Notes: generated by a model not told the origin, from the sequence alone. 29,753 nucleotides of DNA from a virus (IMGVR_UViG_2541047785_000004:1-29753); one strand, 5' to 3'. Numbered from the stretch's first letter, positions 985 to 17,023 are shown. A program made the numbers and translations.

Positions 985-4697
<3,713 letters not shown>

Positions 4698-12724: not shown

Positions 12725-13396
12725 CTATGAAAATGCCGCCTTTTGTTCTGAACGTGCTCCCTCCACCAACAATAAAGCTTCACCATCCAGCCGATGAAAA
12801 ATGTGTTTCATTGCAACCCAGTGACCAGTAAATGTCTTGGACCAGTTTTTGGTTGTTACTCCCACCAGTAACGCCAGTTCCTGGTATTCGTAACCTTCCC
12901 CACCAAAAAGCTCAGCTTTTACCGCCTGCGCCGCCAACCAGATCAACGTCTTCAGGCGCACCAGAGTTTTTCCTGCAATTTTTCTGGTACCGGATTGAGC
13001 ATTAAATTCAGTCCACGCCCACTGCGTTATCGCGATCTGATACTCCCAGCAAATGCTACCGCTGTAACACCACAGCAGCCAGGCTTTATGATGTTCTTCA
13101 AGAGACAGAACGGCGCGTCGCCATGATGATGTCGAAAACTCAACCGGACTGACCAGGGCAATTGAAGAACCTTTCGCCAGCGATTGCTTTCCCGGGATCG
13201 GTGGATTATCCAGCGTTACTATTTTTCCAGTGACCTTATCGCGGTACCGGATTTTTTTACGTCTGTAACGCCCTGTATTGAACATGGCATTCTCCTGCCA
13301 GGCTTCAAGCTGACCTTTTGTTGCTCCACTCAAATCAGCGGTGGCGATCGTGAGCTGCTCACGCACAAACTGTAAATACTGGTTATTCATGCGCAC
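12725..13396 (-). CDS. Putative late-gene antiterminator (Q-position protein, family not recognised), about 221 aa from the ATG at 13390
   Basis: Occupies the Q position between rusA and the late promoter/terminator; ATG at 13390 overlaps the rusA stop (ATGA). No Zn-finger like lambda Q; functional call rests on synteny only. Confidence 0.5.
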   Translation of the reverse strand: MRMNNQYLQFVREQLTIATADLSGATKGQLEAWQENAMFNTGRYRRKKIRYRDKVTGKIVTLDNPPIPGKQSLAKGSSIALVSPVEFSTSSWRRAVLSLEEHHKAWLLWCYSGSICWEYQIAITQWAWTEFNAQSGTRKIAGKTLVRLKTLIWLAAQAVKAELFGGEGYEYQELALLVGVTTKNWSKTFTGHWVAMKHIFHRLDGEALLLVEGARSEQKAAFS

Positions 13397-13746
13397 TCCA
13401 GTTCTGTGATTTTTATCCCCAGCCGACCACCGGGAATAACCTGACCGCGCATAATATTAACTTCATCAAACTGCTCATCGTCGATAAGCAGTCCCGCATG
13501 TGTCAGTGCATCCAGTGGTGCTTTCAGAATATTGTCCAGGTCACGACGGCGCTTATCCGGCGGCTCTGCAATAATTTTTATTGCCAGCCTTCCGGACAGA
13601 TTTAATTTCAGTTGCTGCTGGCGAACAATAAGCGCCACATCCCGGCGATAACGCTCCCCTGCTTTTGATACAAAATATGTGCTGCCACGACGACGCCAGT
13701 AGGTATTCACCGTCGGAGGGTAAGGCAAAACAAATTCTATCCCCAT
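13387..13746 (-). CDS. rusA: Holliday-junction resolvase RusA, 119 aa
   Basis: MGIEFVLPYPPTVNTYWRRRG...PPDKRRRDLDNILKAPLDALTHAGLLIDDEQ matches the RusA family pattern (…PDRRRRDLDNLQKA…DAL…); GAGG RBS. Confidence 0.9.
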   Translation of the reverse strand: MGIEFVLPYPPTVNTYWRRRGSTYFVSKAGERYRRDVALIVRQQQLKLNLSGRLAIKIIAEPPDKRRRDLDNILKAPLDALTHAGLLIDDEQFDEVNIMRGQVIPGGRLGIKITELECA

Positions 13747-13758
13747 CAGTAACCTCTT

Positions 13759-14808
13759 TTATCCGAGTACGCCAGTTGCAAAGGCGTGATCAAGAAAACG
13801 AAAAATTAAATCAACCTGAGACCCATGCTTTTCTTCGAACGCCTGCGGATCTGCATGAAGCTCGTTATGATGTTCCCGGCACAGCGGCAACGTAAAAATA
13901 TCGTGGGCTTTTGTCCCCATTCCGCCCTGACCGTGACCAATCAGGTGATGGGGATCGTCTGCTGGCTTACAACAACATGTACACGGCTGTGTCTTTACCC
14001 AGCGCGTGTATTTCTCATTCACCCAGCGGCGACGTTTAGGCCGCTTCATGAATGATTCCGGTGACTCCGGATCAACGGCAATGCTGACCACCGTCTTTTC
14101 CTGTGGCGGGATTTGTTGCTGGTGGACATGAGGCAACGGCGCAAGATTTTTTGTGCGCTGCTTCAGTATGCTGGTGGCGCTCTGCTCTCCCGGTACGATG
14201 TCACTTTCGCGATACACCGAGTGGATTTTTTCCACACGTAATCCCAGAGAGCGACGTAATACTGCCTCCGGTAGCGCGTCCGCCACCTGATTGCAGACCG
14301 CCCACCAGGATAATTCAGCCAGCGATAATTCCCACTCTTGTGTGCCATTCATTGCGTGACGTATGACGTCAATCATCCAGGCTGCCAGATTCTGCTGAGC
14401 AAGTTGCTCCAGTGAATCAGATGTCTGCTCCCGCAGCTGGTTGTCGCAGTGCCAGCACAACACCATCGCGCCAGTACCGTAACGATGTATGACGGTTTCG
14501 CTGTGATGATAATCGCCGTGTGGCCACTGGCAGGATTTCACGTGACGTAATAGCCAGTCAGACAGTGCGCCAGCACCACCTACAGCACGGATCACCCGCT
14601 CATCGCTGAAAAATGGCAGTAACGATTTGTCTTGCGCCAGCGGCTGGCGAACAGCGGGAACCTCTCCTGATGGCAGCGCCCGCATGTTTTTCGGTTCCGG
14701 CTCCACCAGTACCCGGGTATTGTAAAATACCGGCATGGATTCACGGCCCGGATTAAGGACCACCAGCCCAAGTTCCGGTACCAGAACAGGTCGAAGTAAT
14801 ACCCGCAC
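13759..14808 (-). CDS. DUF968-like (YdfU-like) phage protein with C-terminal Cys/His cluster, 349 aa
   Basis: GTG start with GGAGGT RBS 1 nt after the upstream stop; C-terminal region CTCCCKPADDPHHLIGHGQGGMGTKAHDIFTLPLCREHHNELH resembles an HNH/zinc-binding motif; nin-region position. Confidence 0.7.
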   Translation of the reverse strand: MRVLLRPVLVPELGLVVLNPGRESMPVFYNTRVLVEPEPKNMRALPSGEVPAVRQPLAQDKSLLPFFSDERVIRAVGGAGALSDWLLRHVKSCQWPHGDYHHSETVIHRYGTGAMVLCWHCDNQLREQTSDSLEQLAQQNLAAWMIDVIRHAMNGTQEWELSLAELSWWAVCNQVADALPEAVLRRSLGLRVEKIHSVYRESDIVPGEQSATSILKQRTKNLAPLPHVHQQQIPPQEKTVVSIAVDPESPESFMKRPKRRRWVNEKYTRWVKTQPCTCCCKPADDPHHLIGHGQGGMGTKAHDIFTLPLCREHHNELHADPQAFEEKHGSQVDLIFRFLDHAFATGVLG

Positions 14809-14809
14809 G

Positions 14810-15082
14810 TTACCTCCAGATACGTTGCTGGTATGTGCGGGATGGACGCGGTGGGCGTTCGGAATAAGGGAGCCTGACAGAGATTATCCAGTGACGATAA
14901 TCGAGGCTGAGGGCTTTCTTAATCTCGTATCCTTGTCTGCGGTAGCACTGAATTAGCCACTCGGCCTGTTCTTCAGTGCATGGGTCATGCTGGAACCAGT
15001 CAGATTTGAATGTATGAGAACGCCGCCCGTGCCTGCTGGCAAGGTCGGTATCAGAATTGTGATGTTTGGTATTGTGCGCCAT
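14810..15082 (-). CDS. Hypothetical nin-region protein, 90 aa
   Basis: Complete ORF tightly coupled to the downstream DUF968 gene; basic and His-rich; no recognised motif. Confidence 0.45.
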   Translation of the reverse strand: MAHNTKHHNSDTDLASRHGRRSHTFKSDWFQHDPCTEEQAEWLIQCYRRQGYEIKKALSLDYRHWIISVRLPYSERPPRPSRTYQQRIWR

Positions 15083-15160
15083 CGGTTTTCTCTGCTGGCG
15101 CAGCAGGTGCCAGTTGTTCAGGCTGGCCTGTGGATTGTAAACCAGAATACGTAAAACAAA

Positions 15161-15185
15161 AAACCCGCCGAAGCGGGTTTAGATT
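15161..15185 (-). terminator. Strong rho-independent terminator upstream of the nin-like genes (tR2-like position)
   Basis: Minus-strand RNA AAACCCGCUUCGGCGGGUUU followed by UUUUGUUUU (plus strand 15161-15180 aaacccgccgaagcgggttt). Confidence 0.75.
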
Positions 15186-15306
15186 AGATCATTATGCAAC
15201 TCTACGTTCGGGAGCAACCACAAACAGGAATCGGGAAAGGGTGCCCCTTCCTCGCATATCGCATAACTCCATTGATACAAGCGGAATAACGAAAAATAAT
15301 TTCGCA

Positions 15307-15505
15307 CGGTTTTCCGCATTCCTTACAGATTTTCATTGCCATAACCAGCAAGTCCCTGCATACCTGTATCCCCATACAGGTTGCGATTTGTTGGGAGAAC
15401 CGCTAAACTTGCATCTGTCAAATCCAAGTGTGGCGGTGGGGTTCTCCATCTGCACTGGAAAGTTATCGGACTTTCCATCCTAAGCCCTGTTACAGCAGGG
15501 CTTTT
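15307..15505 (+). ncRNA. Candidate ~200-nt plus-strand small RNA (promoter TTGATA-N17-AATAAT, intrinsic terminator at 15483-15505)
   Basis: No credible ORF; -35 TTGATA 15272-15277, -10 AATAAT 15295-15300; internal hairpins (acctgtat/atacaggt 15356-15380; ggagaacc/ggttctcc about 15393-15458); terminator agccctgttacagcagggcttttttat. Confidence 0.3.
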
Positions 15506-15988
15506 TTATAAAAAGTCAAATGATAGTTGATCCATATAAAATCCTAATTCGCGCAAAACCACCTCGGCAAACAAATCTGCTTGCCATTCAGCATCTTCAA
15601 TTTGCGAAGGTGGTTTATTGGAACTGTGAAATAACGCTCTATGCCCCAACACCAAATGTCCGATTTCATGAAAGAGCACAAATAATGCTTCTCTATCACC
15701 TTTACATGCCAACTCAAATGTATGATTCGGCACACTAATTGTCAGTGTAATTGGATCGTAATGCCCAGATGTCAAATCATATGTAGCTTTAGTCCACGCA
15801 CGATCCTCAACGATATTGAGCGTTATCCCATATTCACTCAACAACTCAAATGCATGGTCTAACCGCTTTTTTCTTTTCAACGTTTTAAGGTCGAAGATCG
15901 CGCTATAGTTAACAGCGCGAGTTGTTATATCAACAATACTCATTGGTGCAACACGATTTCCACGTAATGTGTAAGCTGATTGTTCCAA
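15506..15988 (-). CDS. ImmA/IrrE-family zinc metallopeptidase (HEIGH motif), 160 aa, TTG start
   Basis: FVLFHEIGHLVLGHRALF contains the HExxH zinc-binding motif typical of ImmA/IrrE (COG2856) peptidases; TTG start 6 nt after the HTH gene stop with GAGGG RBS. Confidence 0.8.
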   Translation of the reverse strand: MEQSAYTLRGNRVAPMSIVDITTRAVNYSAIFDLKTLKRKKRLDHAFELLSEYGITLNIVEDRAWTKATYDLTSGHYDPITLTISVPNHTFELACKGDREALFVLFHEIGHLVLGHRALFHSSNKPPSQIEDAEWQADLFAEVVLRELGFYMDQLSFDFL

Positions 15989-15991
15989 CGA

Positions 15992-16351
15992 TTATCCCTC
16001 AACATGATTAATACTTTTCATCAACTCTGCTATTCGCTTTAACTGCTCTGGTGTTAATGGGGATTTAGCAAAACCAGCAACCAACATTTGCTGATTTTGC
16101 GACAATCCATCAAGGGAAACAAACTGATTAGATACATCAGCCAATTCCTGAAGATTATTAATCTCATAACCTCTTTTCAGGAAAAAAGCCTGAATCTCTT
16201 TTACCCATTTTTTGGGGATTTTCTTACTGCCTGTTTCTAAACCGCTCAGAAAAGCTGAAGTTACTCCCAGTTCTTGGGCCATCGTAAGCAATGTGCAGTC
16301 GGTATCTATCCTCGCTTTTCTAACGGCCTTACCGAATTCAGTGAGTGCCAT
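15992..16351 (-). CDS. XRE-family helix-turn-helix transcriptional regulator, 119 aa
   Basis: N-terminal HTH (AVRKARIDTDCTLLTMAQELGVTSAFLSGLETG); GAGGA RBS; co-oriented with and immediately upstream of the ImmA-like gene. Confidence 0.85.
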   Translation of the reverse strand: MALTEFGKAVRKARIDTDCTLLTMAQELGVTSAFLSGLETGSKKIPKKWVKEIQAFFLKRGYEINNLQELADVSNQFVSLDGLSQNQQMLVAGFAKSPLTPEQLKRIAELMKSINHVEG

Positions 16352-16577: not shown

Positions 16578-16733
16578 TTACTTCTCAGATTCGTAGTCCA
16601 CGAAGACAGCAACCTCCGTCTGGCCGGTTCGGATTCGTACCTCGCAGAGGTCTTTCCTCGTTACCAGTGCCGTCACTATGACGGTTAAACAGATGACGAT
16701 CAGGGCGATTAACATCGCCTTTTGCTGCTTCAT
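16578..16733 (-). CDS. hok: Hok/Gef-family type I toxin (HokD/RelF-like), 51 aa
   Basis: MKQQKAMLIALIVICLTVIVTALVTRKDLCEVRIRTGQTEVAVFVDYESEK: single TM helix plus the conserved LTRK.LCE.R...EVA.F..YE tail of Hok proteins; AAGGAG RBS 9 nt upstream; stable hairpin GGCGGGAG/CTCCCGCC (16547-16568) in the 3' region. Confidence 0.8.
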   Translation of the reverse strand: MKQQKAMLIALIVICLTVIVTALVTRKDLCEVRIRTGQTEVAVFVDYESEK

Positions 16734-17023
16734 AGCCTGCTTCTCCTTGCCTTTCGGCACGTAAGAGGCTAACCTAGATTTGCCGTTCATAGATTGAGCC
16801 TCAGATTAATGTTAAGCGTCTTGCAGGACGCGTAATGTTAACTGGGCTTTTCTTTATCTGCCTTTTGATGTTCATGCCTGAGACAGATAGCCTCAAGCAC
16901 CCGCAGCGATTTTACTTACCCTCCCCTCTAGTTCATTCGATACTACAACTTTATTTTCTTTTCGTTGTCTATATAGTAAATAACATGTAATAAAAGTTAG
17001 TCACTAACAATGGAGAGATGCAT

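Follow-up and report, generated by a model that had tools for sequence, protein, structure and literature searches.

On mobile elements, stress switches made up of an XRE-family helix-turn-helix (HTH) protein and an ImmA/IrrE-type metallopeptidase are very common, often with no known output. The subject here is the segment at positions 15186–15505 of IMGVR_UViG_2541047785_000004:1-29753, a viral sequence of 29,753 nucleotides (nt) that is analysed as a whole, called the window below, and represents a lambdoid Escherichia coli prophage. The segment directly follows an XRE-ImmA pair and carries, on the minus strand, a small cysteine-rich protein gene behind a folded 5′ leader. This recurrent small protein is a candidate output of the XRE-ImmA switch. 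The reading preferred here, with a probability of roughly 0.55, is that the segment is a small-protein cassette controlled by its leader and by an antisense RNA, hok/sok-like in layout and forming the third unit of the XRE-ImmA module.

Three-component systems consisting of an XRE HTH protein, an M78 HEXXH peptidase (COG2856, ImmA/IrrE) and a variable third gene have been predicted in phages and prophages (PMC2701414). In RosmerTA, RmrA is a fused HTH-peptidase antitoxin (PMC10440598; bioRxiv 10.1101/2022.05.11.491447). The third partner in modules of both kinds is often unrelated to known families (PMC2701414; PMC10440598; bioRxiv 10.1101/2022.05.11.491447). The module of the window is similar in that an XRE HTH protein and an M78-type HEXXH peptidase are followed by a third gene. 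However, HTH and peptidase are separate genes here, unlike in RosmerTA, and matches to the PADLOC RmrA model are marginal (E = 6e-4 to 5e-2). The third gene also differs in having a structured leader of 140–200 nt and in occurring without XRE-ImmA as well, and its product is a putative effector only.

In CapH/CapP the repressor is cleaved by its partner metallopeptidase, which derepresses neighbouring genes, and the pair is usually divergent from the operon it controls (bioRxiv 10.1101/2022.04.27.489752). The immR-immA operon of ICEBs1 has int as its third gene (as cited in PMC2701414, PMC10440598). The same protein pair as in CapH/CapP and ImmR/ImmA is found in this module, with weak matches to the capP and capH models (E = 4e-4 and 2e-3, respectively). 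In contrast to CapH/CapP, the cargo here is downstream and co-directional. Operator-like repeats shared by the XRE upstream region and the cassette were looked for and none were found.

The cassette is also reminiscent of hok/sok. An open reading frame of ~50 codons is situated behind a long, highly folded leader, the predicted antisense RNA starts inside the leader and runs toward the 5′ end of the mRNA, and terminators bound the compact unit, which is mobile in prophages. However, the cassette shows no sequence or Rfam relationship to hok/sok, no Pfam or NCBIfam type I family match and no conserved overlapping mok-like frame. Type I toxins are hydrophobic, membrane-active peptides in most families, whereas the cassette protein is soluble-looking and basic, with five cysteines. 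Judged from the sequences, the cassette is laid out like hok/sok, but its lack of homology and its kind of peptide place it outside these loci. Short phage antisense RNAs that gate a neighbouring gene, regulatory or toxic, are also represented by P22 sar/ant, lambda OOP/cII and P1 c4. The predicted antisense RNA resembles these in overlapping the leader/ribosome-binding region and in ending at an intrinsic terminator, but there is no homology and the target here belongs to a new small-protein family.

A conserved small-protein gene

The features of the cassette, in window positions, are the following.

15342..15202, minus strand: small protein gene, 46 amino acids (aa) plus stop codon, recognized by codon-position bias and by the ratio of nonsynonymous to synonymous substitution rates (dN/dS); product MAMKICKECGKPCEIIFRYSACINGVMRYARKGHPFPIPVCGCSRT
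15353..15358, minus strand: Shine-Dalgarno-like CAGGGA, 10 nt upstream of the ATG at 15342, seen in the sequence
15343..15505, minus strand: 5′ leader, 163 nt, from the ImmA stop codon to the small-gene start (covariance model R1, alignment A6)
15482..15503: helix H1, in the sense orientation the first leader hairpin and on the plus strand an intrinsic terminator, AAGCCCTG-TTAC-AGCAGGGCTT followed by TTTTTT
15458..15476, minus strand: helix H2, GGAAAGT/ACTTTCC, with compensatory changes
15394..15447, minus strand: helix H3, with outer GGAGAA/TTCTCC, middle CCGC/GCGG and inner ACTTG/CAAGT pairings
15362..15381, minus strand: helix H4, ACCTGTAT-GGGG-ATACAGGT, just 5′ of the Shine-Dalgarno sequence
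15161..15180, minus strand: intrinsic terminator that closes the cassette, AAACCCGC-TTCG-GCGGGTTT then TTTTGTTTT
15272..15300, plus strand: promoter-like TTGATA-N17-AATAAT, antisense, inside codons 15–24 of the small open reading frame, 10/12 matches
15381..15409, plus strand: promoter-like TTGCGA-N17-TAAACT, 8/12 matches, the −10 ending 66 nt upstream of the ATG
15416..15510, plus strand: predicted cis-antisense RNA, ~95 nt, deduced from a promoter-like site plus the terminator

The initial annotation described the segment, bounded by two terminators, as having no credible coding capacity and as the candidate source of a small RNA (sRNA). It does have coding capacity, and it is not a free-standing sRNA locus. 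The minus-strand frame, with its ATG at 15342 and its stop codon at 15204–15202, occupies ~45% of the segment and is conserved in frame, and the segment is the third cistron, or cassette, of an XRE-ImmA module, made up of a protein gene and a structured 5′ leader. Across 12 distinct close variants, the first, second and third codon positions vary in 8/6/34 columns of 44 each (chi-square p = 2e-7), and dN/dS of the close variants against the window is 0.02–0.23. The frame is open in all close relatives and many of the differences are synonymous third-position changes. The segment is thus not devoid of open reading frames, and from these comparisons 15342..15202 is a protein gene under purifying selection.

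The start is conserved as well. The sequence ATGGC(A/T) is common to distant homologues and to the independently called proteins P0002–P0006, and a start reading MA is also present in the gene calls of Yersinia, Histophilus and other genomes. The Shine-Dalgarno-like CAGGGA is invariant in the close clade, where its spacer to the ATG varies freely; distant clades display AGGT, AGGA or GAGG at this position.

Standard annotation has missed this conserved phage gene. PGAP/RefSeq shows nothing at its position in any of the E. coli genomes that carry the locus. One GenBank phage record, MK422450, calls instead a 62 aa open reading frame in the leader (L002 4170–4358), which is not conserved, and this annotation looks wrong. 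All other open reading frames of at least 30 aa in the segment are frameshifted or stopped in homologues; these are frames of 51 aa, 40 aa and 46 aa (the last starting MRKTV) on the minus strand and of 49 aa and 31 aa on the plus strand. An N-terminal extension of the small protein to 57 aa is likewise broken in homologues, and a mok-like upstream frame starting from a conserved ATGGAG is stopped after 8–10 codons in most of them. The database protein P0001 (86 aa) consists of the small protein fused to translated leader.

The proteins of the family are about 44–60 aa long. The 8 cassette proteins share invariant M1, A2, C6, C9, G10, C13, I16, F17, R18, G25, I38, P39, C41 and C43, which include all five cysteines, and the broader protein set keeps C6, C9, G10, C13, I38, P39 and C41. 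In P0005, a CxxC replaces the C-terminal CxC. A word-indexed search of 5.8 billion proteins gave 1 cluster with the single sequence and 6 clusters with a profile, and an exhaustive profile search of 1.84 billion representatives gave 60 matches at E <= 1e-3. Among the top-ranked profile matches, about 25 are 44–60 aa in length and aligned over the full length, with a like pattern in those sequences that were retrieved. Neither of two scans of the GTDB species-representative genomes, one by protein pattern and one by degenerate DNA pattern, gave a match, the element being too rare to be present among species representatives.

The small protein has no family match in Pfam, PHROGs, NCBIfam, PADLOC or PDB. 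Similarities to the DYW_deaminase C-terminus (E = 0.12), zf_C2H2_13 (E = 0.03) and MTase_II (E = 0.004) were taken as cysteine-motif noise. The protein family and the leader RNA motif are both new, in that neither is in Pfam, PHROGs, NCBIfam, PADLOC or Rfam, and no paper describing this protein or leader RNA was found in the literature. The small protein is basic and cysteine-rich and has no hydrophobic stretch. An AlphaFold2 model is all-beta with five short strands (mean confidence score pLDDT 78.8). The sequence suggests a zinc ribbon, which is a reasonable guess and not a result; small proteins of that kind are marked by two cysteine knuckles (CxxC ... CxC/CxxC) carried on a beta-hairpin scaffold.

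Leader structure and the orientation of helix H1

The leader is non-coding, as its variable sites are uniform across the three phases in the close variants (36/30/30). It is structured. The 17 distinct sequences of alignment A6 take in Yersinia as well as two clades that have a gene other than ImmA upstream. The model has 38 pairs; 91.6% of the cells are paired and both sides have changed in 10 pairs, values reached by 0/500 shuffles, although the alignment was fitted to the covariance model, so that pairing counts lean toward structure. The covariation score is 0.166 as against 0.035–0.057 for slid partners, which is about one third or less. A separate RNAalifold run recovered H2, H3 and H4, and the fold of the sense leader is more stable than that of shuffled sequence (z = −3.2).

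The individual helices show how the pairings are kept. The H1 stem sequence is invariant and its loop variable across Enterobacteriaceae clades. In H2, 4/7 pairs are changed on both sides, with a compensatory series GGAAAGT/ACTTTCC to GGAGTGTG/CACATTCC to GGAAGAAAAT/ATTTTCTTCC, and GTAATAAATA/TATTTATTAC in Pasteurella. The middle helix of H3 goes from CCGC/GCGG to CCAC/GTGG to TAAC/GTTG, and in the inner helix 3/5 pairs are changed on both sides. In H4, C-G changes to U-A via U.G intermediates in 8 sequences, and these intermediates pair only on the sense (minus-strand) RNA. Counted over the alignment, 33 G.U cells are valid only on the minus-strand RNA versus 16 (A.C there) valid only on the plus-strand RNA, and the sense G.U pairs sit inside helices and not at their ends. 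The excess modestly favours a structured sense leader, as far as aligned sequences can tell. Two of these hairpins had been noticed before: acctgtat/atacaggt, which was placed at 15356–15380 and lies at 15362–15381, and ggagaacc/ggttctcc, which is found at 15394–15401 / 15440–15447.

The RNAalifold consensus pairs the H1 5′ arm with the Shine-Dalgarno sequence. This pairing fails in Yersinia, L034 and L043, where the Shine-Dalgarno sequence differs, and was rejected. The H1 3′ arm ACAGGGCUU nearly repeats the Shine-Dalgarno region GCAGGGAC, and the H1 5′ arm could pair with either; the long-range pairing may be coincidence or a clade-specific switch.

Within the close clade, a UUGAC in the inner-H3 loop (15413–15417, minus strand; alignment A2 columns 96–100) hardly varies. 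The motif conforms to the YUNR U-turn pattern, which is often seen in loops that receive antisense RNAs. Read as DNA, the sequence is a perfect −35 (TTGACA) with no matching −10.

Both terminators proposed in the initial annotation are borne out. The minus-strand stem runs from 15180 to 15161 with 8 base pairs (bp) followed by a T-run, and the plus-strand stem at 15482–15503 has 9 bp followed by TTTTTT. An equivalent of the former follows the small open reading frame in the homologues that were compared; the similarity with the Klebsiella phage stops shortly after this terminator. The plus-strand terminator is H1 read in the other direction. In every clade with a scorable perfect stem, the sense 5′ flank of H1 is A-rich (2–7 A in 8 nt) and the 3′ flank is T-poor (0–2 T) and G-rich. 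With this flank composition H1 is an intrinsic terminator only for transcription opposite to the small gene. In the window, L033, L034 and L055 a terminator scanner reports H1 as a terminator of antisense transcription. The orientation is also kept in cassettes with no gene upstream that H1 could protect, which would be difficult to account for if there were no antisense transcription. The orientation of H1 is, from these sequences, the best comparative argument that antisense transcription across the leader is plausible.

Candidate antisense promoters are found at two positions. The TTGATA-N17-AATAAT at 15272–15300 is present as initially annotated, but its role as promoter is doubtful, as its hexamers are inside coding sequence. 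The −10 consists of two Ile codons and the −35 of Cys-Ile/Val-Asn codons. The site scores at least 9/12 in 11/12 close variants and is absent from other clades, and synonymous ATT-to-ATC changes weaken it in 3/12 close variants. The other position is conserved. Antisense promoter-like sites recur with the −10 ending 66–74 nt upstream of the ATG in 6/10 clades, their sequences differing: besides the site at 15381–15409, there are TGGACA-18-TAGAAT and TGGACA-18-TAAAAT in Pasteurellaceae-type cassettes (10/12) and TTTACT-17-TATCAT, TTGCGT-16-TATAAT and TTGTAA-17-TATTCT in other clades. Six clades within one 9-nt window were reached in 0/300 shuffles, and the sense strand gives at most 2, but the clades are homologous, so that this test overstates independence. 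In the 4-kb region as a whole, promoter-like sites number 7 versus 6.2 +/- 2.9 expected from shuffled sequence, which is no excess, and terminator-like sites 7 versus 4.6 +/- 1.8. Thus such sites mean little taken alone.

A plus-strand RNA starting from the conserved position would be the ~95 nt species listed above; from the site at 15272–15300 it would be ~205 nt (15306–15510). The initial annotation had a ~200-nt RNA starting from the latter site, and of this the end at the 15482–15503 terminator is plausible and the promoter doubtful. A 207-nt plus-strand RNA folds better than shuffled sequence (z = −5.1), and the predicted antisense RNA displays two or three hairpins plus the terminator. 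Both predicted RNAs are fully complementary to the leader, and the longer also covers the ribosome-binding site and start codon. With either start the RNA overlaps the leader/start region, and would thus be a cis-antisense partner and not a trans-acting Hfq sRNA. The structures first noted are real, then, and a plus-strand RNA is plausible as a cis-antisense regulator, probably from another promoter.

The sense strand offers few promoters. No good one is found between ImmA and the small open reading frame, and upstream of H1 there are weak 8-of-12 sites only, except in L055, which shows a sense promoter-like site just upstream of H1. A TATCAT −10-like box is situated 17–43 nt upstream of H1 in the window (15525–15530), L033 (2768–2773) and L043 (3279–3284), within two ImmA genes and a phrog_2602 gene; it could be a weak cassette sense promoter or chance.

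Gene contexts and proposed control of the cassette

The cassette is found in phages of Enterobacteriaceae and Pasteurellaceae, usually after an XRE-ImmA pair. The whole segment recurs at ~78% identity, directly after XRE-ImmA, in the Klebsiella phage MK422450 as well as in several contigs from IMG/VR and metagenomes; their ImmA proteins are 47–50% identical and their XRE proteins about 68% identical to those of the window. The order H1, leader, open reading frame and terminator is present behind XRE-ImmA in six lineages, these being the window clade, Yersinia, some Histophilus somni (L040), a Pasteurella Mu-like phage and two more. In a Salmonella element (L034 2338–2829) and a lambdoid phage (L043 2832–3323) the cassette is situated behind an unrelated 163 aa phrog_2602 protein. 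This protein is uncharacterised, has no HEXXH motif and is about the length of ImmA. Most H. somni genomes, a lambdoid prophage and a Mu-like phage have the cassette without a co-directional upstream gene, and in the lambdoid prophage it opposes all its neighbours and adjoins hok.

H. somni L039, L041 and L042 carry a cassette (~3296–3640) identical to that of L040 without XRE-ImmA, and the breakpoint is exactly at the A-tract before H1. The breakpoint marks the cassette as a separate unit. The comparison of these sequences implies that the regulator pair was lost or replaced and the small gene left intact. The cassette does not, as these cases suggest, strictly need XRE-ImmA to be tolerated, and its survival without the pair fits an RNA-level brake within the cassette.

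In one of the two further lineages (L046 and L047) the small gene is tandemly duplicated (2792–2935, 3001–3144) behind one XRE-ImmA pair and one long leader. A hairpin is present between the copies, and the first copy ends in CNNC instead of CxC.

Transcription of the small gene would most likely start at the XRE promoter and reach it by read-through past ImmA, since H1 is not a sense-strand terminator and there is no good promoter between ImmA and the open reading frame. By analogy with ImmR/ImmA and CapH/CapP, inactivation of the XRE repressor by ImmA would raise transcription of the cassette. The folded leader may then act as one post-transcriptional gate. A cis-antisense RNA, starting at ~15416 in the leader or at ~15306 in the open reading frame and ending at H1, would be the second gate, pairing with the leader or start region and blocking translation or triggering cleavage. 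Together, antisense RNA and leader fold may impose a threshold on translation. Should the antisense RNA exist, this would be a rare stacking of type I-like RNA control and protease/repressor control on one small effector.

Besides the overstated independence of the clades, several observations count against an antisense- and leader-controlled cassette. The stronger promoter-like site at 15272–15300 is confounded by coding constraint, and the site at 15381–15409 is weak in the window and below the cut-off in five close variants. The conserved-position site is missing in Yersinia, L043, L052 and L054. Stand-alone cassettes other than L055 display no convincing sense promoter. The excess of G.U pairs on the sense over the antisense RNA is only 2:1, the Shine-Dalgarno sequence is not clearly sequestered in the predicted fold, and most type I toxins are hydrophobic, which the basic, cysteine-rich protein is not.

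A simpler reading would have the small gene as a plain third cistron in the 3′ part of the XRE-ImmA mRNA, with no antisense RNA. H1 would then stabilise the upstream message or block stray convergent transcription, and the other helices would tune stability or translation. In most lineages the cassette directly adjoins ImmA in the same orientation, the G.U pairs favour the sense RNA, and the antisense promoters are weak or confounded, all of which agree with such a cistron, as does the lack of a good sense promoter between ImmA and the open reading frame. It also comes close to the suggestion in the initial annotation that the region could be simply the 3′ untranslated region of the ImmA operon, since the segment is the third cistron of that module. 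However, the A-tract and H1 layout is kept in genomes without an upstream co-directional gene, and a plain cistron explains neither the recurrence of the antisense promoter-like site nor why H1 is oriented as it is. We consider this reading tentative, though one to be reckoned with. Somewhat more doubtful is the bolder proposal that the cassette represents a new type I-like toxin-antitoxin or abortive-infection family, in which a zinc-ribbon mini-protein would be silenced by leader and cis-antisense RNA and would serve, in most phages, as effector of an XRE/ImmA damage or infection switch.

Alternatively, the leader could work in cis as a sensor of a ligand, of temperature or of a protein. It might, for instance, be bound by the zinc-ribbon protein at the invariant H1 stem or the UUGAC loop, giving autoregulation. 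The H1 stem never varies across Enterobacterial clades while its loop does, the H3 loop motif is conserved, the protein is small and basic, and the GGAG/CUCC pairing resembles an anti-Shine-Dalgarno switch. Yet no alternative pairing that would sequester the Shine-Dalgarno sequence is conserved (the one with the H1 5′ arm is lost in Yersinia, L034 and L043), Enterobacteriaceae and Pasteurellaceae have different helix sequences, and no Rfam riboswitch matches, which makes a sensing leader improbable. The original idea of a spacer without open reading frames, from which a free-standing, trans-acting plus-strand sRNA of ~200 nt is transcribed by the 15272–15300 promoter, is very improbable. It can draw on a 10/12 promoter-like site, on the plus-strand terminator and on the good folding of the 207-nt RNA (z = −5.1), but the opposite strand holds a protein gene under purifying selection, the promoter hexamers are conserved codons and are lost outside the close clade, Rfam gives no match, and the whole RNA is complementary to the leader/start of the small gene, so it would act in cis. 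Finally, the hairpins may act as DNA, for instance by serving as a site of recombination or insertion through which the cassette moves. The cassette boundaries are H1 and the downstream terminator, and several unrelated contexts are found. However, G.U intermediates inside helices fit the RNA of one strand only, no recombinase travels with the cassette, and boundaries at terminators are typical of phage morons; a DNA-level role has hardly any likelihood.

Rfam was scanned over the whole window at the gathering threshold and permissively over 14900–15800. The only gathering-threshold match in either scan is sok at 16728–16902. A search of Rfam, proposed with the initial annotation as a check on the sRNA, thus gave no family that reaches threshold in the segment, and the sub-threshold matches rest on the terminator hairpins only. 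These are rsmX (the best, E = 0.011), Trp_leader, isrK and sar (15457–15505, E = 8.5), all taken as resemblance to a terminator. A scan for tRNA and tmRNA found none.

Neighbouring genes

The segment region is 100% identical in 6/5,426 complete E. coli genomes. The genes around 15186–15505 are all on the minus strand, as follows.

12725-13396, minus strand: antiterminator Q
13387-13746, minus strand: RusA
13759-14808, minus strand: DUF968 protein
14810-15082, minus strand: gene for a 90 aa protein
15506-15988, minus strand: ImmA/IrrE-type metallopeptidase, 160 aa, with a HEIGH motif; second gene of the module
15992-16351, minus strand: XRE-family helix-turn-helix protein, 119 aa, so named in RefSeq; first gene of the module

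The ImmA at 15506–15988 is named in RefSeq and matches phrog_87 (E = 1.7e-15); its Peptidase_M78 score of 21.7 bits is just below the 22-bit cut-off.

A canonical hok/sok type I toxin-antitoxin locus is found at 16578–16902 (minus strand), just upstream of the XRE gene and 1.2 kb from the segment. It contains a Hok/Gef open reading frame at 16578–16790, and its Rfam sok match has a score of 95.6 bits. A distant relative of the small open reading frame (L052/L053) also adjoins a hok gene, in another lambdoid prophage. RefSeq further shows a 46 aa hypothetical protein at 15014–15154 on the plus strand, antisense to the start of the 90 aa protein gene, and this annotation looks wrong.

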